Below, one piece after another: positions 2,510-57,217 of a DNA stretch of 64,000 nucleotides. Within the stretch, counting starts at the first letter, position 1, and every line of letters begins with the position of its first letter. The translations under genes and the position numbers were made by a program. Origin of the DNA: an uncultured Gemmatimonadaceae bacterium (lineage in GTDB: Bacteria; Gemmatimonadota; Gemmatimonadetes; Gemmatimonadales; Gemmatimonadaceae); assembly GCA_963829055.1 (NCBI GenBank), contig CAWHHI010000020.1, forward strand, positions 64,001 through 128,000. The letters run 5' to 3'. The notes beneath the pieces are model-generated. The model was not told the DNA's origin. It worked only from the letters and a program-made list of their open reading frames with translations, and searched no databases.

Positions 2510-2616
2510 TCAGTAGGAGGTCTCAGGCATCAGGCCCCGTATCCGCCGGCTTGGGCTCGCCGTTACCCGCAGTCGCCGTTAGCCGCCGTACCCTGATGCC
2601 TGACACCTCGTACTGA
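2510..2616. repeat. Long imperfect inverted repeat (25-bp arms, 2 mismatches)
   Basis: TCAGTAGGAGGTCTCAGGCATCAGG ... CCTGATGCCTGACACCTCGTACTGA. Confidence 0.75.
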
Positions 2617-2883
2617 CGCGACTCAGTGCTGAGTCACTGGCCAGGCCGCCGCGACGATGCCGGAGACTCTCAGACGGTGTCGAATCGGCGTCACAACCCG
2701 ACTTCCGGGACAGCAGCCCCACGAATCGAGGCCCGTTCGCCGCCTGGCTCGAATGTCCCGGGACTTCCGCCTCATGTGGGTATGAGCGCGTCCACATACG
2801 TTGCCCTCGTCGGAAGCATTCCGACCTCATGACACACTGACCGCCTAACCAGCGGCCATCCACATATAGCGGAGGATCTCACT

Positions 2884-4305: not shown

Positions 4306-4309
4306 CGCG

Positions 4310-5001: not shown

Positions 5002-5019
5002 GTGTGCGGGGCCTCGAGA

Positions 5020-33205: not shown

Positions 33206-33290
33206 ACCTAACGCCAAGGTTCAGCCGCAAGCGAATCCAATAAGAGCGCGTGACGGAGCCACGCGCAATCCGAAGTCCGCTCAGCTGGGA
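33206..33290 (-). mobile_element. Right part of an attC site
   Basis: Minus strand ...CTCTTATTGGATTCGCTTGCGGCTGAACCTTGGCGTTAGGT resembles the attC ends at 39363 and 55251. Confidence 0.65.
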
Positions 33291-33420
33291 TGCTGATGCA
33301 GATGTTGATGCAGGTGCAACCGTCGCGCAGTACGGGGCCGGGCAGCCGAAATGGTCGGCGCTCGGCGCGAACACCGGGCGGCGCTTTCCCGATGACGACG
33401 CTGGGCACTATCTTGGAGGC

Positions 33421-38932: not shown

Positions 38933-39337
38933 TCACGCACCCTTGTTCTTGTCGTCCCAGGCCTTCGGCTCCCACAGCTCGATCTTGTTTTCGTCCGGAT
39001 CCATGATCCACGCGAACTTGCCATTCTCGTGCGACTCGGGTCCCTGGATGACTTCCACACCCCCCGCACGTAGTTGCTCGAGCAACTCGCCGAGGTTGTC
39101 GACCCGGTAGTTGATCATGAACGACGATGTACTCGGGCTGAACCACTTGCTGTCTTTCTGCGCGACATGCCACACCGTGAGGCCTTGATCCTCGGCCTTG
39201 TCGTCCGGCCATCTGAGTATGGCGCCGCCAAAGTCTTCCAGCGGCATGCCCAAGTGCTTCCGATACCACGCTGCCAATGCAGCGCTGTCGCCTTTGCTCT
39301 TGAAGAAGACGCCGCCGACTCCGGTAACCTTCGCCAT
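38933..39337 (-). CDS. VOC/glyoxalase family protein (gene cassette)
   Basis: VTGVGGVFF, FMINYRVDNL, GKFAWIMDPDENKIELWEP; GTTAGGC, AGGAGG, ATG within ~30 nt. Confidence 0.92.
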   Translation of the reverse strand: MAKVTGVGGVFFKSKGDSAALAAWYRKHLGMPLEDFGGAILRWPDDKAEDQGLTVWHVAQKDSKWFSPSTSSFMINYRVDNLGELLEQLRAGGVEVIQGPESHENGKFAWIMDPDENKIELWEPKAWDDKNKGA

Positions 39338-39362: not shown

Positions 39363-39460
39363 GCCTAACGCCTGAAGTTGAACTATGAGCGAATCAAACA
39401 AGAGCGAGCGAAGCGAGCAACCATAGTCCGCCCGCTCGACAGTCCCAACGTACGTAGCAG
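39363..39460 (-). mobile_element. attC site with degenerate R'' box
   Basis: Ends ...AGTTCAACTTCAGGCGTTAGGC; begins a few nt after the stop of the upstream ORF. Confidence 0.75.
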
Positions 39461-40330: not shown

Positions 40331-40687
40331 TGGCCGCGATGATTTGTTCGACAGTAGCGGCTATGGACCGACTGGTCCGCGTTCCTCCCTCACGCGACCG
40401 TGTCGGTGGCCCGTGCCACTCGATTATGACGTGGCACGGCGACAGGTTGTCGCGCTTGTACTCCGCTCACGCGTCAGCGCCCGCGACCCAGCCGACGCCG
40501 GCCATGCCGCAAAACAGCAGTCCGAGCCACGGGCGCCGTGTGCCTCGGAGGAATGGACGGCCAAGGTGCGCCTCTCCTCAAAGCGAGCGTCAGGCGATCG
40601 CGGCTGTGACTCGGTATCGCACCGAGCGAGATACGGCGTTCGAACGCCATCGCGGTAGGCTGGCCAATCACTGCAGCTGGATGACAC

Positions 40688-40765
40688 GCTCAAACGTGCG
40701 GGCCGTTCAGCAAGCGAGCTCCGCTCCCACGCTCGCTTGACCTTGCAGCGCACGAGGTCCGGCGC
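40688..40765 (-). mobile_element. Eroded attC-like hairpin
   Basis: GTTCAGCAAGCGAGC ... GCTCGCTTGACCTTGCAGCGCACG resembles the attC arms at 55251; core boxes mutated. Confidence 0.4.
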
Positions 40766-40997
40766 GAGTTAGTTCGTGACGCCGTCGAGTGCGATGATGA
40801 TGCGATGTACTCGACGTCAGCGGAGTTCGCTCGGTTGTGTCTAAGGCATGAGGGTACCGTCCAAAGGCCAGCTCGCCGTGAGCCAGCGCGGGAGAGGCTG
40901 CGCATGGGCGGCGCGGCTGTGAAACTCGGTGATCGTCACGGCGTGCTCGCACGTGTAGCAGATCGGCAATGTGCATGACACGAGTGGCGTGTGAGCG

Positions 40998-41288
40998 GCC
41001 TAACGCCGACTATACGACTATAGCCTGACATCAGCATGCGGCCTCGCGCCGCAAACGCGGCAGGGTGTCGCCGTCTAATTCGAAGCGGTGCGGCGAGTGA
41101 CGCACCGACAATGCAACTGCCGTACATGCAATCGCTTACAATGCCAGTCGCCAAGGCGCCGTGTTAGACGGCGAGCGGTGCCGTCTAACACAATGGCGAC
41201 AGAGCACTCGTTTCGAGGTCTCGGGCGGGCGGCGCCAGAGCCAGACGCCCGTCCCCGCCGGCTCTGAACACGCGCGCCCGTGCCTAAC
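40998..41288. mobile_element. Integron-platform-like element, copy A (putative attI, promoter region and intI start remnant)
   Basis: Homologous to 56026-56282 with conserved box spacing; palindrome GTGTTAGACGGC-N7-GCCGTCTAACAC. Confidence 0.6.
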
Positions 41289-41307
41289 GCGTCCGCCCCA
41301 CCCGCCA

Positions 41308-44300
41308 CTACGGCTGCCCGACCCCCGGCGTGATCGCCTTCTTGTCCGCCTTCAACGCGTCGGGATTCACCCACCAGTGCGCCCCGAACGGCGTCTTCGC
41401 CGGCCACACCTCGTCGAGCGTCATCGCGTCGTACACGATCCCGCCCTTCACCACATAGCGGATATTCCGCGTCTGGCGAATGTCATCGAGCGGATTGCCG
41501 TCGAGCACCAGCATGTCCGCGAGCTTGCCGACCGCCAGCGATCCCGTCTCCTTCTCGATCCCGATGAATCGCGCACCATCGATCGTGCCCACCTCCAGCG
41601 CGCCCATCGGCCCCATCGCCGACGCGGCCATCCACACCTCCCAGTGCGACCCCATCCCATGCTGCTGCCCATGGGAACCGATCGTGCCGTAGCCGCCCTC
41701 GGCGATGATGTCCGCGAGGCCGCGCGCGAGCAGCGGGAAGCTGTAGTCCGTCGCCGGCCGCAGCATGCGCCGCCGCGTCTGCGGAATGAGCATCTGCCAC
41801 GGGAGCCACGACTGCAGCTTCGGATCCTTGAACACGTCACTCTCGGCGTACCAGTAGTCCTCGTTCCACGACGACGGCCCCGCCACCATGAACGTCGGAC
41901 TGTAGAACGCGTGCGCCTTGCCGAAGAACTTCGCGACGTCGGCGTAGATCGGCACATTCCCCCACGGATGCTCCCATCCCGTCTGCCCGTCCATGATCAT
42001 CGAGAGGTTGTACTCGATGTCGCCACCCTCGGCCGTGACGCGCAATCCGAAGCGGCGCGCCGCATCGCTCACCCACTGGCGCTGATCGCGGCGCGGCTGT
42101 GAGTACTGCTTCATCGTCACCGCGCCCCACGACTGGAGGCGCCTAACGTTCTGCTCCGTCACGGCCAGCGACGTGAGATCGTTCTGCCGCGGCGCGTCGC
42201 CGGCGTACAGCGGATCGCCGGTGCTGTAGGTGCGCGGCCCGATCATCATCCCCGCCTCGATCATCTGCGCCGTCGGGAAGACGTTGCCCGACCACATCGA
42301 GTTGTCGAGCGTCGTCGTCACGCCGTACGCCATGTAGATCGCGGACTCCCAGTTCTTCCTCGGCAGCACACCCTCGTGGTCGCGATGGTGGTGCGCGTGC
42401 ATGTCGATGAAACCGGGCATGATCGTCTTTCCACTGGCGTCGATCACCTGCGCACCCTGCGTGGTGCACTCGCCAATGCAGGTGATCCGCCCACCCTTCA
42501 CGAGGACGGTGCCGCTCGGGATTACGCGACGATCCTCCATCGTAATGATGCGCGCGCCCGTGAACGCCACCGTGCCTGACGGGACGCGCTTCGGGACCTT
42601 GAGGCCGATCGTGACGGTGTCCGCCTTGTACGTCCGCGTGTCGACGGTGACGATGCGATTCCCGCTCGCGAACTCCGCGGTCACGCTGTCGCGCCAGTGC
42701 GGGAAGAGCCCACCTTCGAGCGAGAGCTGGCGCACCGGGAACCGGCTGTTTCGACCGTGCTCGATGCGCGGCTCGACCTCGCCCGTTCCAGCGAGCGGGA
42801 ACGGAATCAGATACGCGTTGTCGCCCTCCTGAAACAGCAGCTGTCGCCCGTCCGGCGAGACGGCGGCCTCGTCGACGTACGGCATCGTCAGGTACACCTT
42901 CCGGTCGCCGCCGTCGCGATTCACCGAGACGAAGTCAGTGCCCGCCGGACCTCGGCCGCAACACCTGGCCGCGCCGCTTCGGCGCCGTGCGTCTCGGGAA
43001 AGAAGATCCGCCCTCCCGGGCCATACGACGCCTGCACGATCGGACGCCGCGGCATCCCGGGGCGGCTGGCCGAGTAGGGGCGGTTCACCTCGGTGATGAG
43101 GCGCTCGCCGGTGCCGTCGGCGCCGATGCGACGAAGCTCGTACCACGTGTTGTTGGACATCGAGTGCTGACGCAGGAATCCGCCGTTCCCGCGCGTGACG
43201 ACGAGCTCACGTCCGTCAGGCGCCCATGCGGGCTGGAGGTACTCGCCGGCGACCTTCGTCAGGCGAACGGGCTCGCCGCCGGTCGCGCGCACCTTCCAGA
43301 GGTGCCCGAGCTTCTCATCGTCGAAGGTGGTGAACGCGATCCACTGTCCGTCCGGCGACCAGGCCGGCGAGAGCTCGACCGTGGTGAACGACGCGGGCGT
43401 CAGTCGTTTCGGCGTGCCGTTAGGCACGTCGACGACCCAGAGCTTCCCCGCTCCCTCGAATGCCGCTCGCTTCCCGTCCGCCGACCGCGACGCCCAGCGG
43501 AGGTACTGCACGTCGAGCGTGTCGTCGCGCACCGTGCGCGAGGCCATCGCCTGCTCGGAGAGCGTGCGATGCACGCGCGCCGTGAACGGGATCTCCGCGA
43601 CCTGCCGAGACGCAACATCGAGCCGGCGGATCTTCCCGCCCTGCGTGATGACGATCGACTTCCCGTCGGACGTCCACGCGTACCCCGGCAGCACGCGCGA
43701 CACCTTCCCGCCCTCGGCCATATCGACCTCGACGGGATCCATGATCACGCGCTCGGTCCCGCTCTCGAGGTCACGCAACCAGAGCGCCGTGCGCGGCCCG
43801 AACTCGAGGCCTTTGAACTCGATCGTCCCGTTAGGTATGCGTCGACCAAACGCCAGCCAGCGCCCGTCCGGCGAGATCTGCGGCGCGACCGCGCCTCCGC
43901 TCGAGCCCTGGTACTGCTGCTCCGACACGCCTTCGGTCACCATGAGCGTGCGTCCCGTGGCCAGCTCCAGGCGACGAAGCTGTCGCGAACCTTGCGTGAC
44001 GTCGTTCTTGCCGGAGACGATCCCGTCGGTGATCGATACCTGGTAGTACAGGAAGCGGCCGTCGCGGGAGAGCGAAGGCGATTCGGGGCGTCCCTGCGTG
44101 ACGAGGGAGATGCCGCTGCCGCCGTCCTTCGAGTACATCCAGAGCCCGCTGCCGCCTCCTTCCCCTCCGCCCGGCCCACCTAACGCTGATCGGCGGACGA
44201 TGATGAAGTTGCCGTCGGCGCTCCAGGCTGGCTCGGCGACGCGGACAGCGAGGTCGTTGAAGACCGCGCGCGGGTTGGAGCCGTCGGCGTTCATGACCCA

Positions 44301-44648
44301 CAGGTTGTTCTGCCCGCGCCGGTCGCTCACGAACGCAATGAGCTTTCCGTCAGGGGAGATGCGCGGATGGAAGTTGAGCGCGACGCCGCTGTTCTGCGTG
44401 AGCGCCGTGGCTTCCCCACCGGAACTGGACATCCGATAAATGTGGCCGAGCAGGTCGAAGACGATCCACGCCCCGTCGGGCGAGATGTCGACGGACATCC
44501 AGGTGCCTTCGCTGGTCGTGAAGTCGACGTCGCGCGTCTTGCCGCGAGCCTGGGTGACGTCCCACGTTGGGGCGGGAGTGGCCGGCGCGGGAGTTTGCGC
44601 GGCGAGGGGAGCGGCGACGAATAGGGCGAGCGCGAGCGAGGTGCGCAT
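41308..44648 (-). CDS. Secreted PD40/TolB beta-propeller plus amidohydrolase (frameshift near 42940)
   Basis: EGTWMSVDISPDG, multiple SPDG repeats, MPGFIDMHAH, GSHGQQHG, GKLADMLVLDGNP. Confidence 0.9.
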
Positions 44649-44859
44649 CGGAGGACATGTTCGGGTGGGGCGGGCAACGCGGCCGAATGGGCGACTGCGC
44701 AACGATGGCCCGAACACGGCTCTACCTCAATGGCGGCCTCGATCCCAGGTGGGGAGACCGATGTAGAGTTCCGGCCGGCGGCTCCGACTACCGGCATAGC
44801 CCCGAAGTCGGGCCACCGACCGGGATCCTCTCTCCACCGCCAGTCCTGGAGCCGCCACC

Positions 44860-45318
44860 ATGTCCGCCCCTATCGCTCCCGCCAATACCGGTAGCCGCCA
44901 ACTCGGCCGCAGTTTCGCCGCGATCGCCGTGGCAATAGTCGCGAACGTCGTCCTGTCGCTCGGAATCGACCAGGGGTTACACGTGCTGGGCGTCTACCCG
45001 CCGTGGGGACAACCGATGTTCGACGCATCGCTCAACCTGCTCGCGCTGAGCTATCGGCTCGCGTTCGGCGTACTGGCCGGCTACCTCGTCGCGCGACTCG
45101 CTCCGCGGGCCCCCATGCGTCATGCCGCCATCCTTGGAATGATCGCCATCGCACTCAGCACGTTAGGCGCGATCGGCTCGATCACGCAGTACGACCTCGG
45201 TCCCGACTGGTACCCGATCGCGATCGTCGTCACGGCATTCCCGTGCATCTGGGTTGGCGCCGCCCTCCGGACGCGGCGCTGGACGCGTGAGACGTTGATC
45301 GGTAAGGTTCCGGCGTAA
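44860..45318 (+). CDS. Hypothetical 4-TM membrane protein
   Basis: GVYPPWGQPM, ARLAPRAPMRHA, GPDWYP. Confidence 0.8.
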   Translation: MSAPIAPANTGSRQLGRSFAAIAVAIVANVVLSLGIDQGLHVLGVYPPWGQPMFDASLNLLALSYRLAFGVLAGYLVARLAPRAPMRHAAILGMIAIALSTLGAIGSITQYDLGPDWYPIAIVVTAFPCIWVGAALRTRRWTRETLIGKVPA

Positions 45319-45353
45319 GCTCGGCCGTACTTCGCAAAGAGGCTGGGGCAGCC

Positions 45354-46352
45354 ATGTCGACGCGCCTAACGACTCCACAAGCACCGATCGGTTCTGGTTT
45401 CGGCCCGGCGTCGACGGCGGCCGAGGTGATCAGCGGAATCGACCTGTCGAACAAGGTCGCGATCGTGACTGGCGGCTACTCCGGCATCGGCCTCGAGACC
45501 GCGCGAGTGCTGCGCGCCGCCGGGGCGAAGGTGATCGTCCCCGCTCGCGATCTCGACAGGGCAACGCGCGCGCTCGACGGTGTCGGTGTCGAGATCGCGC
45601 CGATGGATCTCATGGATCCGGCGTCGATCGACGCCTTCGCGGATGATTTCATGGCGACCGGCCAGCCGCTCCACATGCTGGTGAACAGCGCCGGGATCAT
45701 GGCGGGGCCGCTGGTGCGCGACGCCCGGGGATACGAGTCGCAGTTCGCGACGAACCACCTCGGGCACTTTCAGCTGACCACGCGGCTGTGGCCCGCGCTG
45801 CGCCGGGCGAACGGCGCACGCGTCGTCGCGGTGTCGTCCTGGGGACATCGGCGCTCGCCCGTCGTGTTCGACGATCCGAACTACGAGCGTCGCCCCTACG
45901 ACGGCTGGCTCGCGTACGGGCAGTCGAAGACGGCGAACATCCTGTTCGCGCTCGCGGCGGACGAGCGTGGCAAGGCAGACGGCGTGCGTGCGTTCTCGCT
46001 TCATCCCGGCAGCATCGCGGGCACGGGCCTGGAGCGGCACGTGTCACGCGAGGCACTGCAGGCCGGTGGCGTTCTCGACGAGGACGGCCGTCCCATCATC
46101 GATCCGGCGAGAGGCTTCAAGACGGTCGAGCAGGGCGCGGCGACGAGCGTCTGGTGCGCGACGAGTCCCCAGCTCGAAGGCATGGGTGGCGTCTATTGTC
46201 AGGACTGCGACATAGCGCCGCTCGTATCCGAGACGAACTTCGCCGCGCAGCTCGGATCTCTGCCGTTAGGCGTGCTGCCGTACGCCGTGGACCCGGAAGC
46301 GGCGAATCGTCTCTGGGACCTGAGCCAGCTGCTCCTGCAAGCCGGTGCGTGA
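45354..46352 (+). CDS. SDR oxidoreductase (retinol dehydrogenase-like)
   Basis: TGGYSGIG, FATNHLGHF, YGQSK. Confidence 0.93.
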   Translation: MSTRLTTPQAPIGSGFGPASTAAEVISGIDLSNKVAIVTGGYSGIGLETARVLRAAGAKVIVPARDLDRATRALDGVGVEIAPMDLMDPASIDAFADDFMATGQPLHMLVNSAGIMAGPLVRDARGYESQFATNHLGHFQLTTRLWPALRRANGARVVAVSSWGHRRSPVVFDDPNYERRPYDGWLAYGQSKTANILFALAADERGKADGVRAFSLHPGSIAGTGLERHVSREALQAGGVLDEDGRPIIDPARGFKTVEQGAATSVWCATSPQLEGMGGVYCQDCDIAPLVSETNFAAQLGSLPLGVLPYAVDPEAANRLWDLSQLLLQAGA

Positions 46353-46443
46353 ATGCTGCGTGCGCGGCGCTCGGCCGCGCTGCTGCTTCACGGTTCAGCC
46401 GGCAGCATGAATGCCTGCGCGGTGATGGCGGCGCGACCCTCCC

Positions 46444-48882
46444 TCAATCGGTGCGCAACGCCTGAACGGGATCGATTGACGTCGCGCGCCGTGCAGGCAG
46501 ATACGCCGCCGCGGCTGCAACACCGAGCAGCACCAGACACGCCGCCCCAAGCGCGACCGGATCGGTCGGACTGATCTGGAACAGCAGTGTGGTCAACAAC
46601 CGCGACATCATGAGCGCGATACCGAGGCCGGCAGCGGCACCAATCCCGGTGATGATGCCGGCACGACGCAGTACGTCTGCCCGGACTCGTCCCGACGTGG
46701 CGCCTAACGCCATCCGGATCCCGAACTCGCGCGTCTGATCGCGCACGAGTGCCGCCATCACACCGAACAACCCGATGGCCGCGAGGAGGAGCGCGACGCC
46801 ACCGAACGCGGTCATCAACAGCGCTCCCAGCCGCGGCTGTGAGAGAGGCTCCGCGAGAATCTGATCCATCGTCTGCGGACTCCACAGCGCCATGTCGGGA
46901 TCGACGTCGTGTCCCGCCGCGCGCAGAGCGGGCAGCAACGCCGACAGAGCCACGGTGCTGCGAATGGCGATCGAGCCTTGCCAGTATCCCTGCAAGGACG
47001 GCAGGAACACCATCGGCGACGCCTCCCGCAGCGTGCGCAGATGCGTCTCGTGCGCGACGCCGACGACGGTGCGCCATCCATCGCCACCGACGATACTCTC
47101 CGGCTTCGCTCCGGGCACTCGAATACGCTTTCCGATCGGATCCTCGTTAGGCCACAAGCGCCGCGCGACCGACTGACTCACGATCGCGACGAGTGGCGCC
47201 GAGCCGTTGTCCTGCTCACCGAACGCCCGCCCCTGCAGGAGCGACACACCGAACGTCTTGAAGAACTCCGGCCCGGCCATCTCGGTCGGGAACATTGGAT
47301 TCGTCGCCGCGCCAGGAGCCGGGTCCCCCTCGATCTCGTACCGGATTTGCCAGACGCCGTTGCCGAGCATTGGCGGCGCGACCATTGGCGTCGCCGCAGT
47401 CACGCCTCGAATCGCGCGGACGCGGTGCAGCACGCGATCGCCGAGGATGACCATCTTCGAGACCGAATCGAACCGCTTCGCATTCCACGAATACCAGACG
47501 ATCGAGAGATGGTCGCTCCTGAATCCCTTGTCCTGCGTCTCGAGCCGCGCGAGGCTCCGCGCGAGGAGCGCCGCGCCGCCGAGCATCACCATGGCGAGCG
47601 CGATCTGTGAAGCGACGAGCGCCTGTCGCAACCGGCGTCGCCGAGTCGTTTCGGTTCCGGTTCGCGAGTCGAGCCGGAGCGGCGACGCGAGGTTCGCGCG
47701 CGCGGCGAACACCGCGGGCCCAACGCCGAAGAGCAGCACGGTGATCGACGTGATCATCGCGGCGACGCCCACCGGCGCACCAGCGATCTGCACGTCGTCG
47801 AGGCGCGGAAGTCCCGCTGGGGCATACGCGATGAGCAGGCGCAGCACCACGGTCGCAATGCCGAGGCCGAGTACGCCACCGACCACCGCGATCGCCAGCG
47901 CCTCGACGAGAAGCTGGCGCACAATGTCAGTGACGCGCGCGCCGAGGGCACGGCGTACGGCAATCTCTCGCGTTCGCGACGACGCGCGCAGGAGCAGCAG
48001 GTTGCCGACGTTCAGACAGGCGATGAGCAGCAGGAGCCCTACCGCCGCCGTCAGCAGCGCGAGCACCGGACGCACGTTCCCGAGCACGGTCTCAGCGAAC
48101 GTCGCGACGTGCGCGCCGCGGAAGGTGAGCGTCGGCGACAGCCGCTGTTCAATGGCGAGGTATTCGTCGCGCGCAGCGTTAGGCGTTGCTCCAGGCGCCA
48201 GGCGCGCGACGGCGAATGCGGATACGGTCGACTGCCATCCCGACCACATCGGGATCCAGTAGTCGGCGTCGGCCGGATAGTCGAAGCCCGAGGGCGCGAC
48301 GCCGATGATGGTGTAATCGATGCGGTTCAGTGGATCGATGAGATGTCGGCCGACGACGGACGAGTCGCCAGCGAAGTTCTCGCGCCAGGCGCGATAGCTG
48401 AGAACGAGATTGCGGCCGACAGCCGGATCGGCGGGTGCCGCGACACTCGGTTCGTCATCACTCGGGCGAAAGAGTCGCCCCAGTGCGGGACGCACGCCGA
48501 GGACATCGAAGAAGTTGCCCGTCACCATGCCGCGATTCAGCTCGATGGGCTCCTGGCCATACATGAATGGCGAGGAAGTGGCCGGCCAGTGAGCGACCGC
48601 GGCGATCTCGCGCATCGTGCGCGATTCCTTCCGCACGACCGACAGCTCCCTGGTACCTGTCGTGAGCTCAGTGGCTGGATCCGCGGCGTACGTCCACATG
48701 ACGACGACGCGATCCTGATCGACCACCGGGAGCCGTCGCACGAGCACCGTTCGAAATACGGTGAACATCGCCACCGACGCGCCGATGCCGAGCGCGAGGA
48801 TGACCAGCGCGGTGACGACGAAGCTTGGGCTTCGGCGGAAGCCGCGGAGCGCGAACCGGATGTCCTGCCAGGTACGATCCAT
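46444..48882 (-). CDS. Duplicated orphan ABC permease
   Basis: QDIRFALR, LLIACLNV, REFGIRMALGA, PARRATSIDP. Confidence 0.92.
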   Translation of the reverse strand: MDRTWQDIRFALRGFRRSPSFVVTALVILALGIGASVAMFTVFRTVLVRRLPVVDQDRVVVMWTYAADPATELTTGTRELSVVRKESRTMREIAAVAHWPATSSPFMYGQEPIELNRGMVTGNFFDVLGVRPALGRLFRPSDDEPSVAAPADPAVGRNLVLSYRAWRENFAGDSSVVGRHLIDPLNRIDYTIIGVAPSGFDYPADADYWIPMWSGWQSTVSAFAVARLAPGATPNAARDEYLAIEQRLSPTLTFRGAHVATFAETVLGNVRPVLALLTAAVGLLLLIACLNVGNLLLLRASSRTREIAVRRALGARVTDIVRQLLVEALAIAVVGGVLGLGIATVVLRLLIAYAPAGLPRLDDVQIAGAPVGVAAMITSITVLLFGVGPAVFAARANLASPLRLDSRTGTETTRRRRLRQALVASQIALAMVMLGGAALLARSLARLETQDKGFRSDHLSIVWYSWNAKRFDSVSKMVILGDRVLHRVRAIRGVTAATPMVAPPMLGNGVWQIRYEIEGDPAPGAATNPMFPTEMAGPEFFKTFGVSLLQGRAFGEQDNGSAPLVAIVSQSVARRLWPNEDPIGKRIRVPGAKPESIVGGDGWRTVVGVAHETHLRTLREASPMVFLPSLQGYWQGSIAIRSTVALSALLPALRAAGHDVDPDMALWSPQTMDQILAEPLSQPRLGALLMTAFGGVALLLAAIGLFGVMAALVRDQTREFGIRMALGATSGRVRADVLRRAGIITGIGAAAGLGIALMMSRLLTTLLFQISPTDPVALGAACLVLLGVAAAAAYLPARRATSIDPVQALRTD

Positions 48883-48896
48883 GGTAGTTAGTGCAG

Positions 48897-49490
48897 TTAC
48901 TCCGGTGCGCGTGTCGACTCGCTTGTCGTTGCGGCACCCCAACGGTGACCCGGCGCAGTCAGCGACAGCGCATCTCGAAGCCAGGCGCGTTGCCTGGCTC
49001 GAAGGAACGGTCTCACCGACTCGAAGTCGGCGTCGTCCTTCGCGCTTGGCGCCTTGGATTTGTACAGCAGAACGATCTCCGGGGCCAGATAGCGCACTGC
49101 CCGGTCACCGCAAAACGCCGCGCCGATTGGGAGACGGATCCGTGGATCGCGACGATAGACCCACTCGCCCGTCTGCCGATCCTGTTCGTTCAACAGAAAC
49201 TCGAGATGGTATCCGTCCGGCCACGTCGCGTGGACTTCGTGAATGGGCGGCGCGAGCGTCTCGTCGACCGCCCAGTGGACAAGCTGGTGCGCCGCGACCT
49301 TCTCTACTCGGGCACTGGAGAGCCGAGTGTGGAGCTCGCGCTGGTCGTCGCGGAGAATGGCCACGTCGATATCGGCGTGCGGTCGCGATTCCCGCCCGAG
49401 AAACAGATCGATCGCCCACCCGCCCGCTATTCCCCAGGGGCTGTGGAATCCGCTCATGAGCGCCGCCGCGCGTTCGATGGCAGGGTTCAT
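48897..49490 (-). CDS. Nucleotidyltransferase (aminoglycoside-2''-adenylyltransferase-like family)
   Basis: AGGWAIDLFLG...HADID, LAPEIVLLYK, KDDADF. Confidence 0.85.
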   Translation of the reverse strand: MNPAIERAAALMSGFHSPWGIAGGWAIDLFLGRESRPHADIDVAILRDDQRELHTRLSSARVEKVAAHQLVHWAVDETLAPPIHEVHATWPDGYHLEFLLNEQDRQTGEWVYRRDPRIRLPIGAAFCGDRAVRYLAPEIVLLYKSKAPSAKDDADFESVRPFLRARQRAWLRDALSLTAPGHRWGAATTSESTRAPE

Positions 49491-49538
49491 GGGCGTGGGG
49501 TGGCCGAGCGACGACTGGCGTGGACGCCTAACGTCACG

Positions 49539-50060
49539 TCAGCCGCTTTCGGAATACCTCCGTTGGCGGACCAGGTCGGCGTCTCCCTCCGTCGGGCGCT
49601 CCTCGATCAGCTCGTGGTCCAGCACCGTATGGAACGAGACCACCGCCCAGTCCTCCGCACCCACCACGCCCTGGTGCCACACGCTCGGTGGGATGGAGAT
49701 CCACCGCTCCTCCAGCGGAGCGTCGGGATCGCTGCGGAGGCGGTGCGAGATCCACTCGCTCCCCGGCCGCGTGGGAAAGTCGCCGCGACCGCGGAACGAC
49801 ATCATGCGCTGATGGCTGTTCGGATGCCGCTCGGCGCCAGTGGTCGTGTTCGCGCGCAGGACGAAGACCCAGCTCGAGCGGATCGAATCCGGGAGCGGAA
49901 CCTGGTAGAGGTCGAGCGGAACGGTCGCCCACGCGTACACCTCGCCCGGGGCGTCGCGGAGCTTACGATCGACGTCGGCGACGATCGGCTCGATTGAAGC
50001 CGCGGCGGCTCGTACGGCGGCGTCCAGAAGTTCGAGCGTTTCGCGTTCGTGTGCGTTCAT
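49539..50060 (-). CDS. Hypothetical cupin-like protein
   Basis: ERHPNSHQ, IPPSVWHQ, VSFHT. Confidence 0.65.
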   Translation of the reverse strand: MNAHERETLELLDAAVRAAAASIEPIVADVDRKLRDAPGEVYAWATVPLDLYQVPLPDSIRSSWVFVLRANTTTGAERHPNSHQRMMSFRGRGDFPTRPGSEWISHRLRSDPDAPLEERWISIPPSVWHQGVVGAEDWAVVSFHTVLDHELIEERPTEGDADLVRQRRYSESG

Positions 50061-50102
50061 GGCGCCTCCAGACGCGTTCGGTTCGGTGATATCAGGCAGC
50101 GC

Positions 50103-50948
50103 CTAACGACCACTCGCGAGCGGGCTGCTCGCGAAGCCGCGCAGCGCCTTCATCCATTGCTGCGTCATGATGCCGAGGACGCGCCTTCCCTTCTCCGCGG
50201 TCGCGAGCGTCGGGTCGCCGAACACGCCGCTCGTCGAGAAATCGGGATCTCCAGGACGGCGCGAAAAGTCGGTCGGCCGGTAGCCGGGGTAGGCCGCGAC
50301 GGTGTCCCCTCGGTAGTCGCGCACGGCGCGGTCCATGTGTACCAGTTCCGGCCGCAGCGCCAGGATGACCGAGGTCTCGAGATCATCGGCATGAGTGCCC
50401 GCACGCTGGGTCGTGAGAGCCTTCATCGCCGCCGTCTCGAGGTCGTCCCAGGAGATGACGAGTGTCGGCACTCGCTCCTGCGCGTAAAGTGTCCGAGCGG
50501 CAAGCGTGATGGGGATGCCGGTCGACCGTGTCACGCCGGTGTTCAGGAACACCACGCGCCTGGCGCCGTGCCGCACGAGCGAGCGCCCAGCCTCGAGCAT
50601 GTAGTGCCAGAACACGTCGGGGTCGCCAATGGTGAGCCCCGGAAACTCCGCGAAGGCTGGGAACCAGCCGTGCAAGATCGGCGGTGCGACCACCACGGGC
50701 AGCGAGTCGACGGCGATCTTCGCGAGGTACTCCATTACGATCTGGTCGCTTGCGAGCGGGAGGTGCGGCCCGTGCTCCTTCGCTCCGGCACCGAACGGCA
50801 GGATGACCATCGGCGCGTCACGCAGCCGGCGTTCCGCCTCAGGCCATGTCAGGTCGCCCAGGAATACACCACGGGTCTGCGCAGTGGCGGGCACCGCGAC
50901 GGTCGTGCTGAGAGCGATCGTGGCCACGATGCGAAGCGAGAGTGACAT
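50103..50948 (-). CDS. Creatininase family protein with signal peptide
   Basis: KEHGPHLPLASD, HADDLETS, SGVFGDPTLATAEKG. Confidence 0.9.
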   Translation of the reverse strand: MSLSLRIVATIALSTTVAVPATAQTRGVFLGDLTWPEAERRLRDAPMVILPFGAGAKEHGPHLPLASDQIVMEYLAKIAVDSLPVVVAPPILHGWFPAFAEFPGLTIGDPDVFWHYMLEAGRSLVRHGARRVVFLNTGVTRSTGIPITLAARTLYAQERVPTLVISWDDLETAAMKALTTQRAGTHADDLETSVILALRPELVHMDRAVRDYRGDTVAAYPGYRPTDFSRRPGDPDFSTSGVFGDPTLATAEKGRRVLGIMTQQWMKALRGFASSPLASGR

Positions 50949-51039
50949 TGTGCGCTAGCCTCCGGGAGATTTCACGGTCTACGCTACCGCCGCGCGGAAC
51001 GGCCCACACCTGGAGTTCACCTCACAGGAATCTGCCAAG

Positions 51040-51228
51040 ATGCGGCGGCGTGGCCGCCGCCACCATACTCCGACGGCGGTGCTGCTTCTGCTCGAACGAG
51101 GGGCTGACTGGAAGCAGGGGAAGTCCGTCAACGGACTGCCGTTCGCGAGCGTGATCGACGGCGAGGTCGGCTCGCAGGGCAACGACAGCGCGTTCGTGGA
51201 CGTTAGGCGATACCTGCAGCAGCACTGA
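51040..51228 (+). pseudogene. Ankyrin-like C-terminal fragment
   Basis: AVLLLLERGADWKQG. Confidence 0.4.
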
Positions 51229-51269
51229 GTGGAACGCGCCTGGCGGGTCGGTCACCAGGGCCGCGACCG

Positions 51270-51782
51270 ATGTACTACGAGGAGCTGCACGGTGGCGTGT
51301 GGGAGCGCATCGCCATCGACGGCGAGATGCTCACGGGGCGCGCGCATCACGTCATCTACTTCGCGACCCCCGAACGGTGGCTCCAGTATCCCGAGTGGGC
51401 GAAGGCGCGGCGTGATGAGATCATCGCACGCGTCGTGAGCGAGTTCCGCGAGCCGGACTACGAGTATCACAGTGCCGGCGCCGGCAGCACGGTCGCGCGA
51501 GCGGCACCCGTGGTGTCAACGCCGAGTGGAAAGCGCGCACTGTTCATCGCAGTGCTGATGCTCTTCGCGGTCGCCGGCGGGATGGGATGGCTGGTCACGC
51601 GCGGCGTTGTCGGTGGCGAGACGTATTACCCCAACACGCGACCATCTCTGCGACGCATGGTGTCGCGTCCGCGGGAGCCCGTCATGTTCTGGGCGTCGAT
51701 CGGCGTGTACGCCGTCATCGGAGCAGGCACGCTGACGCTTGGCGTGCTTGGCGTGCGCGCGGGACGACGGCTGGGGAAGTGA
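51270..51782 (+). CDS. Hypothetical protein, soluble N-domain plus 2 TM
   Basis: YPEWAKARRDEIIARV; followed by GCCTAAC. Confidence 0.6.
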   Translation: MYYEELHGGVWERIAIDGEMLTGRAHHVIYFATPERWLQYPEWAKARRDEIIARVVSEFREPDYEYHSAGAGSTVARAAPVVSTPSGKRALFIAVLMLFAVAGGMGWLVTRGVVGGETYYPNTRPSLRRMVSRPREPVMFWASIGVYAVIGAGTLTLGVLGVRAGRRLGK

Positions 51783-52009
51783 GCGCCTAACGCCAGATGG
51801 TTCGCTCGCCCGTCATGCCATTTCATTGACGCGTTCTACCAGCCGAACACCGTGCCGCGGGCGAATCGGCGAGATCTGCGTGCATGCGACAGCAGTCGGC
51901 CGTCGGCATCGACAGTGACGTCGCCGAACGTGTCGAGGCCGAGTTCGAGAGTGGCGGTGGGAGTGGGGTGGAGCTCATGGCCAAAAACCACACTGCTGCC
52001 CGCGTGCCA

Positions 52010-52073
52010 CCATTCTGTCAATGCGTGAGCCGAATGAGCAAAAAGACGCCACGAACAGTCATTCAGCGGCTCG
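52010..52073 (+). promoter_or_regulatory. Putative AraC-dependent promoter/operator, copy 1
   Basis: 64 bp, ~6 mismatches to 55090-55153. Confidence 0.65.
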
Positions 52074-52123
52074 CCAACGCCACGTATGGTACTCCCATCA
52101 TCAATATCCCTATGGAGAGTGCC

Positions 52124-52846
52124 ATGCAAATCAAGGATTCGGTCGCCCTGGTCACCGGAGCGAACCGTGGAATTGGCCGCGCGTTCGTCGAAGCGCTGCT
52201 CGAACGGGGCGCGAGCCGCATCTACGCGGCGGCGCGGGATCTCGCGAGTCTGGACGCGGTCGTTCGTCTCGACCCGAAGCGCATCCGCGCCCTGAAGCTC
52301 GACGTCACGAGCGCCGAGGATGCGCGCGCGGCGGCCGCGCAGGCGAAGGACCTCACGCTGCTGATCAACAACGCCGGGGCGCTCGCCTGGGGCGGCCTCA
52401 CCGATATCTCAGTGGATGCGGTGCGAGGCAACATGGAAACGAACTTCTTCGGCTTGCTCAACGTGATCACGGCCTTCGTGCCCGTCCTCGAGCGGAGCGA
52501 GGGGAGCATCGTCAACATCCTGACGTTCCTCTCGCTGGTCAGCGCGCCAGGCGTCGCCGCCTACAATGCCTCCAAGGCCGCGGGGTGGTCGCTCACGCAG
52601 TCGTTCCGCGCCGACCTGGCCAAGCGCGGGATCCGGGTGCACGGCGTCTTCCCCGGTCTCGTGGACACGGACATGGCGCGCCCGTTCGAGATGGCGAAAA
52701 CCCCAGCGATCGACGTGGCTCGCGCCACGCTCGCCGGCGTCGACGCGAATGAGGAAGACATTTATCCGGACCCCATGTCGCAGCAGCAGTACGCCGCCTG
52801 GCGGGAGGATCACAAGGCGGTGGAGCGTCAATTCGCGGCCATGTGA
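52124..52846 (+). CDS. SDR oxidoreductase
   Basis: TGANRGIG, NNAG, YNASK. Confidence 0.93.
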   Translation: MQIKDSVALVTGANRGIGRAFVEALLERGASRIYAAARDLASLDAVVRLDPKRIRALKLDVTSAEDARAAAAQAKDLTLLINNAGALAWGGLTDISVDAVRGNMETNFFGLLNVITAFVPVLERSEGSIVNILTFLSLVSAPGVAAYNASKAAGWSLTQSFRADLAKRGIRVHGVFPGLVDTDMARPFEMAKTPAIDVARATLAGVDANEEDIYPDPMSQQQYAAWREDHKAVERQFAAM

Positions 52847-52893
52847 GCGAGCGCGGGAAGTTGGGAGGGGCGTTCCTCTTTTCGTCGCCGTTG

Positions 52894-52921
52894 CCCCGCG
52901 GACGATACATCGTCCGCGGGG
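52894..52921. repeat. Perfect hairpin
   Basis: CCCCGCGGACGAT-AC-ATCGTCCGCGGGG. Confidence 0.7.
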
Positions 52922-52986
52922 CGTGCTCGACCCGACGTTAGGCGACGTAGGGCGTCCCCGAAATCCTGACGATGCGAAGCACTGAT

Positions 52987-54060
52987 ATGGCAACAGACCT
53001 GTTCACCCCGATCAGGCTGGGCGGTCTGGAACTGCCCAACCGCATCGTGATGGCGCCGCTGACCCGCAACCGCGCGGGGCAGCCCGGCAACGTGCCACAG
53101 CCGATCAACGCCACCTACTACGCGCAGCGTGCCTCGGCGGGCCTCATCATCACCGAGGGCTCACCGATATCGGATATGGCGCACGGGTACCCCGGCACCC
53201 CCGGTATTCACAGCCCAGCGCAGGTGGCCGGCTGGAAGCGGGTGACGGACACGGTGCATGCCGAGGGCGGGCGCATCTTCCTGCAGCTGTGGCACGTCGG
53301 ACGGATCTCTCACCCGTCGCTGCTGCCTAACGATGCGCTGCCAGTGGCTCCCTCCGCCATCAAACCGGCGGGCAAGGCATTTACGCATCAGGGGAGGACG
53401 GATTTCGTCACGCCGCGTGCGCTGGAGACCTCGGAGATTCCGGCGCTGATCGAGGATTTCCGCGTTGCGGCGCACAATGCCACGACTGCTGGGTTTGACG
53501 GAGTGGAAGTGCATGGCGCCAACGGCTACCTGCTCGACCAGTTTCTCCGTGATGGCAGCAATCACAGAACGGACCAGTATGGCGGCTCAATCGCCAACCG
53601 AACGCGGCTGCTGCAGGAAGTGGTGGCGGCTGTGTGCGAGGTGTGGGGCGCCGATCGCGTCGGCGTCCGCATTTCGCCGCTCAACCAGTACAACGACATG
53701 CGCGATTCCAACCCGCAGGCGCTGTTCAACCACGTGGGCGATACGCTCCGTCCATTCGGTCTGGCCTATCTGCACGTGATGGAGCGTGACGTGCACGGCT
53801 CGGAGGTGCCGCTCGACTTCCCCGAGTTGCGGCGTCGTTTCAATGGGCATTACATGGCGAACGGCGGCTACGACAAGCGACGCGCCAACGCGGCAATCGC
53901 GGCGAGTCGAGCCGATTGCGTCGCGTTCGGCACATCGTACATCGCCAACCCCGATCTGGTCGAACGCTATGCCCAGGATGCGCCGCTCAACGTGGCTGAC
54001 CCCAGCACGTTCTACGGGGGTCGCGAACAGGGATACACGGACTATCCGGCGCTGACCGGC
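52987..54060 (+). CDS. Alkene reductase (old yellow enzyme/NemA-like); expected stop missing, ORF reads on to 54459
   Basis: NRIVMAPLTR, QLWHVGR, HGANGYLLDQF, GYTDYP. Confidence 0.93.
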
Positions 54061-54098
54061 GACCACGTTGCGCGCTTGCGGTTACCATGCCGCGCGTC

Positions 54099-55064
54099 TC
54101 ACTGCGCCGCGGCTCCTGCCTCGCGCCTTTGTCGCAGCTCGGCCCGATACCGACCTGGCGGGAGCCCGCGTAGCCGCGAGAATGCGCGCGAGAATGCGAA
54201 CTCGGAGGTGTACCCGACGTCGCGCGCGATCATGCTCACGGCCTTGTCCGTCTCGCGCAGGTGCCGCGCGGCCAGCTCCATGCGCCAGCGCGTGAGATAC
54301 GAAAGCGGTGGCTCGCCGACCAGGGTCGAGAAGCGGCGCGTCAGTGTGGCCCGCGACAGGCTCACCTCGCGCGCGAGGGTCTCGATCGTCCATGGCGCTG
54401 CGGGGTCCGCGTGCAAGATCGAGAGCGCGCGCCCAATGGTCGGGTCACGCAGTGCCTGAAGCCAGGACGTCCCGGAGCAGTCCTCGGTGCCTAACCACGC
54501 GCGGATCACCTGAACGAACAGGACGTCGATCAGCCGGTCGATCACGGTCGCCGACCCGGACGTTCTTGCGGCGAGCTCGTGACGGAGGACGCGTAGCGTC
54601 GCCTGCACGGGGCTCCCCTCCGCCATCTCCTGTCCCGACAGGAACAGCACGGGTGGCATCAGCGACAGGAGCGGTTGTGCGACCTCGTGATCGTACTCGA
54701 ACCCCGCGCAGATGACGTGTGTCGAGCTCCCCCCGCCGGGGCCGTCGAACACGCATTCGTGCGCGGGATTCCCAGCTTGCCCCTCGGCGACCTTGCCCCA
54801 CGTTCGCGTCGGTCCGGCAGGAGCGCTCGCCACGATATGCGCTGCTCCGGTCGCCAGCAGTACGACGTCGCCCGGAAGCTGTTCGATTGGCGGTTGTCCT
54901 TTGACGCGCACCCAACACACGCCGGCGGTCACGGCGTGCAGCGTCGCCTTCGGGGTCCGCGGAAGGCTAATGCCCCACGGTCCTCGGGCGCGCAGGTTCG
55001 CCATCACGGCGCCACGCACACGCAGCACGTCGAGGACGTCGTCGAGCGGGCAACGGAGCTCCAT
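54099..55064 (-). CDS. AraC family regulator with Cupin_6 domain
   Basis: WTIETLAREVSLSRA, YLTRWRM, GYTSEFAFSRAF. Confidence 0.93.
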   Translation of the reverse strand: MELRCPLDDVLDVLRVRGAVMANLRARGPWGISLPRTPKATLHAVTAGVCWVRVKGQPPIEQLPGDVVLLATGAAHIVASAPAGPTRTWGKVAEGQAGNPAHECVFDGPGGGSSTHVICAGFEYDHEVAQPLLSLMPPVLFLSGQEMAEGSPVQATLRVLRHELAARTSGSATVIDRLIDVLFVQVIRAWLGTEDCSGTSWLQALRDPTIGRALSILHADPAAPWTIETLAREVSLSRATLTRRFSTLVGEPPLSYLTRWRMELAARHLRETDKAVSMIARDVGYTSEFAFSRAFSRLRGLPPGRYRAELRQRREAGAAAQ

Positions 55065-55089
55065 GCCAGGAAATATAGCCGAACAATGT

Positions 55090-55153
55090 CCATTCGCTGA
55101 ATGCGTGAGCCGAATGGGCAAAAAGACGCCACAGACAGTCATTCAGCGGCTCG
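55090..55153 (+). promoter_or_regulatory. Putative AraC-dependent promoter/operator, copy 2 (no target gene downstream)
   Basis: Direct repeat of 52010-52073, divergent from the araC start. Confidence 0.65.
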
Positions 55154-55250
55154 GCGTCGTCGGTTTGCTCGACCGGGCGTGACGGGCCACGTCGTCAGAT
55201 CATGCTGCTCCGTAGACTGAGTATCGAACGCTCGAGGATCTGTGGAAACC

Positions 55251-55341
55251 GCCTAACGCATAAGTTGAGCTGCAAGCGAACGCAGTAAGAGCGCGGCCCG
55301 CCGCTTCGGTAGCCCCCTTGTCAATGCAACGCACGTTAGGC
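55251..55341 (-). mobile_element. attC site (91 bp)
   Basis: GCCTAAC GTGCGTTGCATTGACAAG ... CTTGCAGCTCAACTTATGC GTTAGGC. Confidence 0.85.
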
Positions 55342-55423
55342 GACCGGTCACGATGCCGACTTCGTGTCGGCGCTGCTGATAGGAAGGCCTGCATACGCTG
55401 CTTACCCCAGAATATGGGCATTC

Positions 55424-55513
55424 GCCTAACGCCTGAAGTTCACCTGCAAGGTTGATCCGGCGGCACAACCGCCAGCACGATAGCGCCCTTGGCGAGTGCA
55501 ACGCACGTTAGGC
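55424..55513 (-). mobile_element. attC site (90 bp)
   Basis: GCCTAAC GTGCGTTGCAC...CAAG ... CTTGCAGGTGAACTTCAGGC GTTAGGC, 10 nt after the hicA stop. Confidence 0.88.
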
Positions 55514-55523
55514 GGTTACCGCG

Positions 55524-55746
55524 CTACGCCGCCACGAACTCTGGGACGGTGATCCGGATGTCGCGACAGATCTGGCGGAGTAGTGTGGGTGAGATATCTC
55601 GCCCCCGCGTGCATCGGGACAGTCGTGACGCGGCCGTCCGTGTGCCGAAACTGTTTGTGCGAGCCGCGTTGGCGGACCTCGACGAACCCGAGTCGCTCAA
55701 GGCGGGCGACCACTTCGCGCGGCTTGAGGACGGGGACGGACCCCAT
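55524..55746 (-). CDS. hicA: HicA toxin (frameshift near 55600)
   Basis: [16 protein letters not shown]...TTVPMH continuing as [12 protein letters not shown]. Confidence 0.9.
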
Positions 55747-55758
55747 GGTGTCGGCGGC

Positions 55759-55968
55759 CTACGCCACGAGGATAGTCTGCGTTCCAACGAACTCCGCCTC
55801 GAGCGGCGGGTCCCCGTCCTCCAGGAGCATCGCGATTACCTCGCGGAGGTTGGCATGCAACTCGTCGAGGCTGTCCCCCTGAGTGTGTGCCCCCGGAAAC
55901 CCGGGAACGTACCCGACGAAGACACCCGTCTCTGGATCGCGCTCAATTACGGCGGTGTAAGTGCGCAT
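55759..55968 (-). CDS. hicB: Short HicB antitoxin
   Basis: YVPGFPGAHTQGDSLDELHANLREVI. Confidence 0.9.
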   Translation of the reverse strand: MRTYTAVIERDPETGVFVGYVPGFPGAHTQGDSLDELHANLREVIAMLLEDGDPPLEAEFVGTQTILVA

Positions 55969-56025
55969 AATAGCTGAACTTATGCGGCATTCCAATCCAT
56001 GCAAGTCGATGGGTCCGGTGCATCC

Positions 56026-56282
56026 GCCTAACGCTCATCGTGCGGCGTTCGTGAAACGGATAACGGGGCGTGACCGCGCGAATACAGCGCTTCTTCGCCG
56101 TCTAATTCACGACAATGCGGCGAGGCTCAGGCCGCAGATGTAACCCCCGTCGTGCCAACCTGATACTTCCGAGCGACGCCACCGTCCGTGTTAGGCGGCG
56201 AGGCTCGCCGTATAACACAATGGCGACAGAGCACGTTTCGAACACACCCTGACCCCGCCGCTCTACATGCCGGACGCCTAAC
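56026..56282. mobile_element. Integron-platform-like element, copy B
   Basis: Homologous to 40998-41288; abuts the first cassette (hicBA) at GTTAGGC. Confidence 0.6.
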
Positions 56283-56402
56283 GCGCCATACCACCGGACG
56301 CCGGGTGCACAAGCGGGGCGGCTATCGTGTCAGCCCACGAAGCCTCGGCAGCCAGCACGATGGCTATTCCCAGCTACGCTGCAAGCTGATGTCTGGCCCA
56401 TT

Positions 56403-56810
56403 CTAGCGCGCGCGAACAGTCCGGACGTCGCGAAACTTCGTATTGTCCGCGAGTCGCAGTTCACCAACGAGACTGTCATTGCGTACGCGAAACTGCCAGG
56501 TGCCCTGCGGCATCACGCAGGTCAGCGGCCCATTTGTCGACGCGAAACGGCAGGTGAGGACCCCCATCTCCTGTTCCTCGCCGCGTACGATCTTTCGCGC
56601 GTCCACCGTCAGGCTGTCCGCGGCGTTCGTATGTGCTATCCGATAGACGACGATTTCGTCGTTGCAGGCCGAGGGGCGCACCAGGCACACCGAGGTACCG
56701 CGCCAGGTGCCCACTGGGGTCGCCGCCGCTGGCTGTGGAGATGGCGATTGAGCGCCCACGCCGCGCGCGAGCATGCTCACGACGACAAGGCCAGTAAGCC
56801 GAATCCTCAT
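56403..56810 (-). CDS. Hypothetical secreted protein
   Basis: Signal peptide; GTWRGTSVC...ACNDEIVVYRI. Confidence 0.75.
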   Translation of the reverse strand: MRIRLTGLVVVSMLARGVGAQSPSPQPAAATPVGTWRGTSVCLVRPSACNDEIVVYRIAHTNAADSLTVDARKIVRGEEQEMGVLTCRFASTNGPLTCVMPQGTWQFRVRNDSLVGELRLADNTKFRDVRTVRAR

Positions 56811-56866
56811 AGCCCCGCCTATCCTCACGTCCATTGGGATGCACCCCGTCGACATTGATGGTTCGT

Positions 56867-57217
56867 CTACGTTCGCAGGATCTTCTGCATGGGCCTGCCC
56901 TTCGCCAGTTCATCCACCAACTTGTCCAAGTATCGGATGTTGCGCATCAGCGGATCCTCGATCTCCTCGATTCGGACGCCGCAGATGATGCCGGTGATCT
57001 TGCTGGCATTTGGATGCAGCGCTGGCGCTTCGCTGAAGAAGGTCTCGAAGTCCTTCTTTCGTTCAATCTGCTCCGCGAGCGCGCTCGGACTGTAGCCCGT
57101 CAGCCAGCAGATGACTTCGTCCACTTCCTGCCGCGTGCGTCCTTTCGCTTCGGCTTTCTGGACGTAGTGGGGATATACGCTGGCGAAGGAAGTGGTGAAG
57201 ATCCGGTGCTTCTTCAT
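56867..57217 (-). CDS. DUF2200 protein
   Basis: [38 protein letters not shown]. Confidence 0.92.

Follow-up and report, generated by a model that had tools for sequence, protein, structure and literature searches.

We analysed a window of 64,000 nucleotides (G000:C20:64001-128000) from the genome of an uncultured Gemmatimonadaceae bacterium (GCA_963829055.1, here G000; 7.78 Mb, 86% complete), in which two non-coding elements, A and B, stand on the minus strand 15 kb apart, each followed by integron gene cassettes. A and B are likely orphan attI platforms of an inverted-type integron, that is, platforms without an adjoining integrase gene (intI), and an intact integrase (IntI) encoded elsewhere would load them with cassettes in trans. 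Positions without a contig prefix are those of the window, and features are collected in Table 1.

A and B are homologous far beyond chance: their alignment matches in 137 of 214 columns and scores 173, whereas none of 1,000 doublet shuffles exceeded 75. The boxes and spacings listed in a preliminary description of the window were all found in place. GCCTAACGC starts at 40998 in A and 56026 in B, TCGCCGTCTAATTC at 41068 and 56095 (offsets +70 and +69), TGCGGCGAG at 41089 and 56116 (offset +21) and the palindrome box at 41161 and 56188 (offset +93), and they are followed by AATGGCGACAGAGCAC (41192 and 56219), CCCCGCCG(G)CTCT (41253 and 56253) and CCTAACGCG (41283 and 56277). Read on the cassette strand, the block of ~210 bp runs from a GCTCGG-GCCA box through a 9-N7-9 palindrome and ~75 variable bases to a TCGCCGCA box, then to a second palindrome (one arm left in G000, complete in other family members) and, after ~60 bases, to the core AATT(N)GC-G↓TTAGGC, the arrow marking the inferred crossover. 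The block ends at this G↓TTRRRY core, where same-strand cassettes with attC sites begin.

A platform profile found six copies in G000, five co-oriented on C20 (104,995-207,998) and one on C17, and a profile built from 36 copies returned the same six. Five of them are orphans. The sixth (C20:207783-207998) lies against the stop codon of the genome's single full-length intI (C20:208008-208985, L001; TIGR02249, 265.7 bits), which lies on the cassette strand and is transcribed toward the platform; the G000 integron is therefore of the inverted type. The IntI profile had no match within 5 kb upstream of A or B, the nearest intI on C20 being 88-103 kb away, and neither locus is a complete integron with intI beside attI. 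Four of the five orphans lie 40-170 bp behind a co-oriented gene. A search for related loci among the genome contigs gave six distant loci, none with a platform.

We searched the platform model in 121 genomes of the family and five further genomes of the genus; it matched 19 of the former and all five of the latter. The tally used here comprises 36 well-aligned copies from 11 genomes, most of the genomes being fragmented and close kin not being independent. Left out of the 37 matches of the family search were four weak G000 extras, one short, locus-less G130 match and the weak single-genome matches (E above ~3e-5); six of the weak matches resembled coding false positives and two adjoined intI remains. 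Two weak genus matches and one weak G003 match from the genus search were also omitted. A degenerate platform-like stretch at G001:C326, which follows the same ABC-F gene that precedes B (E 0.17, on a long unplaced branch), was likewise excluded from the 36.

Seven of the 36 copies lie 24-173 bp 3′ of intI, and in all seven intI points toward attI on the cassette strand, as in inverted-integrase integrons. Upstream of the other 29 the IntI profile found no match (1.5-5 kb searched; 248 bp for G001:C11), and a DNA-level profile of intI tails gave a relic at p ≤ 0.01 in one of the 29. A candidate relic upstream of B (pairwise p 0.023) reached p 0.12, at a different place, with the seven-sequence tail profile, and no relic is claimed there. 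Same-strand attC sites lie downstream of 24 of the 27 orphans examined; the remaining two orphans, one at a contig end and one outside the attC-model search, were not counted. G000 has ~27 attC calls in 7.78 Mb, so that a random position has a ~0.3% chance of an attC within 1.6 kb. In the tree of copies, the six of G000 form one clade (100/99), the three of G130 and the two of G128 do likewise, and those of G003 and G004 interleave in one group (93/74). G079 (99% complete) holds three orphans together with two high-scoring intI at other loci. A Gemmatirosa record (L139) has 11 same-strand attC after intI and a different platform type. Gemmatirosa is also the source of the plasmid match closest to the G000 IntI, and several homologs are labelled Gemmatimonadaceae.

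The orientation of the linked copies bears on the preliminary description, which had taken A and B for canonical divergent integrons whose intI was cut off after ~25-30 codons, with a frame opening MATEH as the IntI N-terminus. The MATEH frames and an RPRRL stretch do exist as it wrote them, but intI occupies the cassette strand in 7/7 linked copies, so the frame has the wrong direction for the start of intI; the G000 IntI begins MNATGDERLL. In the linked copy the same ATG (MAAEHRF, then a stop) reads away from the array, toward the tail of the opposite-strand intI. The frames end after 24 and 10 codons, and against the IntI profile the peptides gave no positive score in six frames (best -2.9 bits). 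We regard a divergent, truncated intI as practically dismissed.

Close strains and sister species differ from the core on. An exact 28-base pattern retrieved four metagenome contigs (L140-L143), all of which match the flanks of A or B at 93-99%. L140 is 96.8% identical to the upstream flank and platform of B over 1,367 bp, up to GTTAGG, after which it carries a different open reading frame (ORF) and then the start of another, cut-off attC. L142 and L143, which are 99.5% alike and counted once, match A and both its flanks at 93-99%, with 1.3 kb replacing 0.5 kb from the core on; this segment begins with a cassette of ORF and attC (62.8 bits, absent from G000), and it also holds a Dabb gene and the 5′ portion of the following gene. 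L141 keeps the first cassette of B. In the same contig, an IS110-family transposase (PF02371; L141:3722-4708) is inserted at the start of B's first attC; IS110 elements that target attC exist. Two pairs of orthologous orphans in the sister species break likewise. In the pair G003:C834/G004:C22 the upstream flank and the platform are common to both, each locus then has a single cassette of its own, and the homology resumes at the R′ box; in the pair G003:C886/G004:C1 the upstream flank and the platform are again shared, the sequences part at the core, and they come together once more at the R′ of the last attC. Strain and sister-species homology thus breaks at G↓TTRRRY, where cassettes begin, and the crossover would lie between 41004 and 41003 in A and between 56032 and 56031 in B. 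No version of the compared loci seen has intI, so integrase events there most simply postdate its absence. The earlier suggestion that platforms without intI may be served in trans fits these comparisons. In most runs (assembled contigs) coverage reached its minimum directly downstream of A and B, but no junction was listed, and this is not used as evidence.

The full palindrome is confined to the six platforms in the 7.78-Mb genome (≤2 mismatches). A LexA-type regulon operator is unlikely, since the pattern is present at these six places only and not before many unrelated genes. The half-site, TTA(G/T)(G/A)C(G/T)GC, resembles the repeats DR1 and DR2 of attI1 (taken from plasmid record L138), and by this analogy the palindromes are likely accessory integrase-type binding sites; the GCCGTMTAA boxes, for which protein binding had been proposed, have the appearance of such boxes. 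As a candidate cassette promoter (Pc) upstream of the core, a TTGCAG-17-TAGAAC-like pair was noticed by eye, though in no more than a few copies of the family. Rfam had no match anywhere in the window, and no terminal repeats of a miniature inverted-repeat transposable element or other non-autonomous transposon were evident in the alignments, no formal search for them having been made.

The only full-length intI of G000 encodes a probably impaired protein. At the positions of R146, K171, H277, R280, H303 and Y312 (residue roles from PMC9229058, in part) the linked IntI has R, D, R, R, H and Y, and without K171 and H277 it departs from the residue set of an active integrase. Among 242 aligned full-length IntI, a set biased by being gathered by similarity to the linked IntI and restricted to intact frames, all six residues are retained in 209, and 21 have H277R together with the loss of K171; eight of these 21 are also without Y312 and seven without R146. 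Judged from these residues the 21 are probably impaired integrases. In the nine-member group around the linked IntI (mean identity 72%), 69% of the family-conserved columns are invariant versus 27% of the variable ones, a pattern that suggests continued selection on the impaired group. Another IntI of the impaired group lies directly upstream of a platform at G128:C61. Of a second intI of G000 (C4:2850-3239, L002), the assembly has a 5′ fragment of 125 codons; it is fused to an ABC-transporter gene and lies 2.9 kb from the end of its contig. The truncation is possibly a mis-assembly, because a full-length protein from public metagenomes (P0121, 350 aa) is 98% identical to the fragment and has all six catalytic residues intact. 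An IntI of the P0121 type is probably the working enzyme of the species, and we take the C4-type IntI as catalyst because the linked intI lacks K171 and H277. Among relatives, 5′-truncated or frameshifted canonical intI that keep their 3′ end were seen in G022, G036, G038 and G025 (L060-L066; up to four in G022), and in G019 and G001 (L013, L028) intI is followed on its own strand, after a few hundred bases, by a second tyrosine recombinase gene.

In the mechanism that we propose, a canonical IntI, represented in G000 by the C4 fragment, would be the catalyst, and the palindromic boxes would act as its accessory binding sites, as DR1/DR2 do in attI1. In the inverted orientation, attI and any promoter would lie wholly outside intI, so that the block could be copied or kept without the gene. 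Transcription of first cassettes would start at a promoter in the platform or reach them by read-through from the host gene upstream, which is co-oriented; for A, the amidohydrolase gene is a possible source of such a read-through promoter. The weakest step is the copying of the block alone, which the lineage-level grouping of copies and the lack of relics favour. Shared non-intI DNA upstream extends over at least 240 bp between G001:C130 and C11 and over only ~30 bp between G130:C30 and C84. Cassettes inserted in the genome can be excised by IntI at secondary sites close by (bioRxiv 10.1101/2022.09.11.507474, in part); the candidate route for the block would be such an excision at an upstream secondary GTT, and a GTT was seen by eye ~50-95 bp upstream of the palindrome in G000 copies.

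Several results weigh against this reading. Platforms are absent at four empty sites (three orthologs of the gene neighbouring C20:193862 and one, in G005, of A's amidohydrolase gene), and comparison with them gave no clean G↓TT insertion; for the HI0933 gene at the C20:185304 copy, no ortholog was found in six genus genomes. The similarity between B and C20:185304 continues ~30 bp past the upstream GTT. The variable segment of A in G000 has its far end inside a gene, so that the G000 state at A needs a deletion or non-canonical event as well, and the L-box region of A is in G000 a short tandem repeat unlike the strain version and seems altered. Three of the 27 orphans had no detectable attC, the copies within G046 and within G079 form no supported clades, and no sigma-70 promoter consensus lies inside A or B. 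The assembly, at its 86% completeness, holds no intact catalytic IntI. For the linked IntI, a binding role is weakened by the report that substitutions of H277 abolish attI1 binding by IntI1 (PMC3146285, citing Messier and Roy; in part).

The main competing explanation is that whole integrons were duplicated and each lost its intI, leaving static arrays whose strain differences predate the loss. We consider this improbable as a whole, although parts of it have something to recommend them. The array of A is decayed and its L box altered, some linked intI are truncated or internally deleted (G001:C250, G046:C101), loss of intI is a recognised origin of integrase-less attC clusters (PMC4889954, in part), and Xanthomonas arrays stabilise after intI inactivation (bioRxiv 10.1101/2025.06.18.660453, in part). 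Set against this are the lack of any protein-level relic beside the 29 orphans, with the DNA tail profile positive at one, and strains that are 97-99% identical in their flanks, all without intI there, yet differ from the core on. The orthologous pair whose identical flanks enclose one differing cassette calls for precise integrase events under either view. The strain and species comparisons largely refute the static part; an origin by whole-integron duplication and clean deletion is possible.

Still less probable is a role for the octamer GCCTAACG/CGTTAGGC as the driver of spread. It equals the attC/attI core and occurs 5,004 times in G000, 49 times the order-2 Markov expectation, so GCCTAACGC boxes alone are weak evidence. 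It lies inside genes on both strands (1,505 TTA-GGC pairs among 2,690 TTA codons, which are rare), and numbers 2,500-5,100 in each of six other genus genomes, the seven genus genomes and G014 spanning 2,500-6,400; many relatives have fewer than 70, and several of the matches listed there stand in cassette-like runs. The idea that this genome-wide GCGTTAGGC octamer offers thousands of ready integrase targets gains from its abundance across the genus, from the up to 6-8 platform matches per genus member and from its presence upstream of three of the five G000 orphans. However, orphans are present in all five tested family genomes with only 7-66 octamers, so the octamer is not required, and in the one empty site that does contain an octamer, its strand is the wrong one. 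We give very little credence, finally, to reading the element as an attC of unusual length, or as a promoter cassette without an ORF that travels as cargo. In its minimum-energy fold the GCCTAAC...GTTAG ends, which lie 171-172 bp from each other, are paired, and B is bracketed by two same-strand GTTAGGC cores with cassette-like genes upstream. Yet the fold has a z-score of -0.73 (43 of 200 shuffles were as stable), and the attC covariance model, seeded with 10 local attC sites, matched neither platform, which also speaks against an attC with an imperfect R′′/L′′/L′/R′ hairpin. An attC right-arm profile found no site up to 3 kb upstream of any of the 36 copies, the covariance model giving two weak upstream matches at G004:C187, and the block lies 3′ of intI in every linked copy. 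The reading of A and B as orphan attI platforms loaded in trans is retained as the likely one.

Table 1 Features of and around elements A and B in the window.
Feature	Position	Strand	Basis
Platform A, putative non-coding attI platform of an inverted-type integron without adjoining intI	40998..41207	-	Homology to the copy abutting the intI 3′ end (C20:207783-207998)
Putative attI core of A, G↓TTAGGC	40998..41004	-	Strain contigs L142/L143 diverge directly after the heptamer
Palindrome 1 of A (9-N7-9)	41164..41188	.	Pattern at six platforms only genome-wide; half-site attI1 DR1/DR2-like
Second box and conserved TCGCCGCA box of A	41070..41097	-	Alignments
Upstream GCGTTAGGC of A, possibly the upstream end of the copied block	41282..41290	-	Common to B and the C20:185304 copy
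Platform B, second putative orphan attI platform	56026..56234	-	Platform homology
Putative attI core of B, G↓TTAGGC	56026..56032	-	Strain contig L140 diverges after GTTAGG
Palindrome 1 of B	56191..56215	.	Pattern search
Second box and TCGCCGCA box of B	56097..56124	-	Alignments
Upstream GCGTTAGGC of B	56276..56284	-	Shared with A and the C20:185304 copy
attC of array A	39363..39459	-	attC covariance model, 47 bits; 1.5 kb from A
Glyoxalase gene after the attC of array A	38933-39337	-	Pfam
Strain-variable segment after A	40479..40997	-	Replaced in L142/L143
Host amidohydrolase gene, ends ~100 bp upstream of A	41308..43146	-	Pfam
First cassette of B: hicB-like and hicA-like genes and attC (55424-55513)	55424..56025	-	HicB Pfam match; attC 71.8 bits
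Second cassette of B, apparently ORF-less, attC 55251-55341	55251..55423	-	attC 72.3 bits (site among the model's seeds)
Two small genes upstream of B (one unknown, one DUF2200)	56403..57217	-	Homologs downstream of platforms in relatives

Each element was described earlier as the head of a minus-strand cassette array. Minus-strand cassettes do lie downstream of both, but the arrays are short. B, with two attC sites and no nearby intI, falls within the definition of a CALIN (a group of attC sites that has no integron-integrase). A resembles a SALIN (one attC site on its own, with no integron-integrase), since its one strong attC is accompanied by just a weak one (33206-33307, E 0.093) that lies another 6 kb away, past decayed sequence. 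In the first cassette of B, the hicA-like frame was judged by eye; it is apparently frameshifted and has no Pfam match. The two small genes upstream of B are probably older cassettes, given the place of their homologs in relatives. Between the nearer of them (56403-56855) and B, a decayed attC right arm was noted by eye at 56360-56390, where the profiles detected nothing. A 64-bp direct repeat, 91% identical, occurs at 52010-52073 and 55090-55153, close to where an SDR gene and a gene for an AraC-family regulator begin, and is possibly shared operator DNA.

Further along the contig, C20:97,000-208,000 carries ~20 attC calls and five platforms on one strand, scattered over 110 kb among non-cassette genes, several attC preceding genes with no attC after them. 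At C20:163143-163194 two attC right arms make up a 52-bp near-perfect palindrome, which may be a collapsed attC. Groups of attC without a clear platform occur at C9:92-93 kb, C9:208-210 kb and C10:178-190 kb, the last headed by a weak platform-like match (C10:191122-191297, E 0.087).

CALINs and SALINs as described (Cury 2016, PMC4889954; Loot, bioRxiv 10.1101/2022.09.11.507474; both in part) are likewise short arrays far from intI, mostly without intI pseudogenes, for which mobilisation in trans has been proposed. They are defined by attC only, and the tools of these sources match just class 1-3 attI, whereas the arrays of A and B keep a full attI platform. The platforms have multiplied within lineages, and the cassette exchange traced to the attI core makes them receiving sites besides reservoirs. 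Inverted-integrase integrons (Treponema, PMC3607928; group named in PMC3575428; both in part) share with our copies intI pointing toward attI, attI in the 3′ intergenic region and the core GTTRRRY, and the archaeal attI downstream of intI (bioRxiv 10.1101/2022.02.06.479319, in part) has the same arrangement. These papers give one attI per integron and describe an intI-less T. phagedenis array as static, whereas one genome here has up to six platforms per intI-linked copy, and the accessory boxes are palindromic rather than direct repeats. The attI1 site of class 1 (L138) is similar in its L/R simple site ending G↓TTAG and in upstream boxes, GTTATGGAGC and GTTACGCAGC, that resemble the platform half-site. 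It spans ~65 bp, however, with two direct repeats near the core; the platform measures ~210 bp, and its 9-N7-9 palindromes lie ~70 and ~165 bp upstream.

In Xanthomonas (bioRxiv 10.1101/2025.06.18.660453, in part), intI loss is also common and CALINs are fixed beside host genes, one by an FAD-dependent oxidoreductase gene. Inactivation there goes with stable arrays, and the consulted part reports no attI at CALINs, whereas the orphan sites described here vary between strains. The Delta-attI cassettes of mobile integrons (PMC12901181, in part) are likewise attI-derived sites away from their normal place and still recombinogenic; they are truncated attI that close resistance cassettes inside arrays, while here whole platforms head separate chromosomal arrays. 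A literature search covering few subscription journals found no paper that deals with orphan attI platforms or, for this group, with a conserved dead IntI, nor any about the octamer.

The origin, expression and continued gene capture of CALINs are described as open questions in PMC4889954 and bioRxiv 10.1101/2022.09.11.507474 (both in part), largely because attI is not recognisable outside classes 1-3. The platform family offers dozens of copies of an attI that can be aligned, natural comparisons with and without intI, and strain pairs that differ at the crossover, and these make capture in trans directly testable with a standard assay. Compared with CALINs as described, what would be new is an attI that is recognisable, multiplied and still used, and for its activity in trans there is good comparative evidence from sequences. 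The findings suggest that counts of intI genes underestimate the live gene-capture sites of soil bacteria. We hold it doubtful, but worth stating, that the system is a distributed integron in which one catalytic IntI serves many attI platforms behind host genes, and the conserved impaired paralogue at the parent platform binds the palindromes in an architectural or regulatory role. If that were true, many CALINs in other bacteria would be live capture sites with an unrecognised attI.

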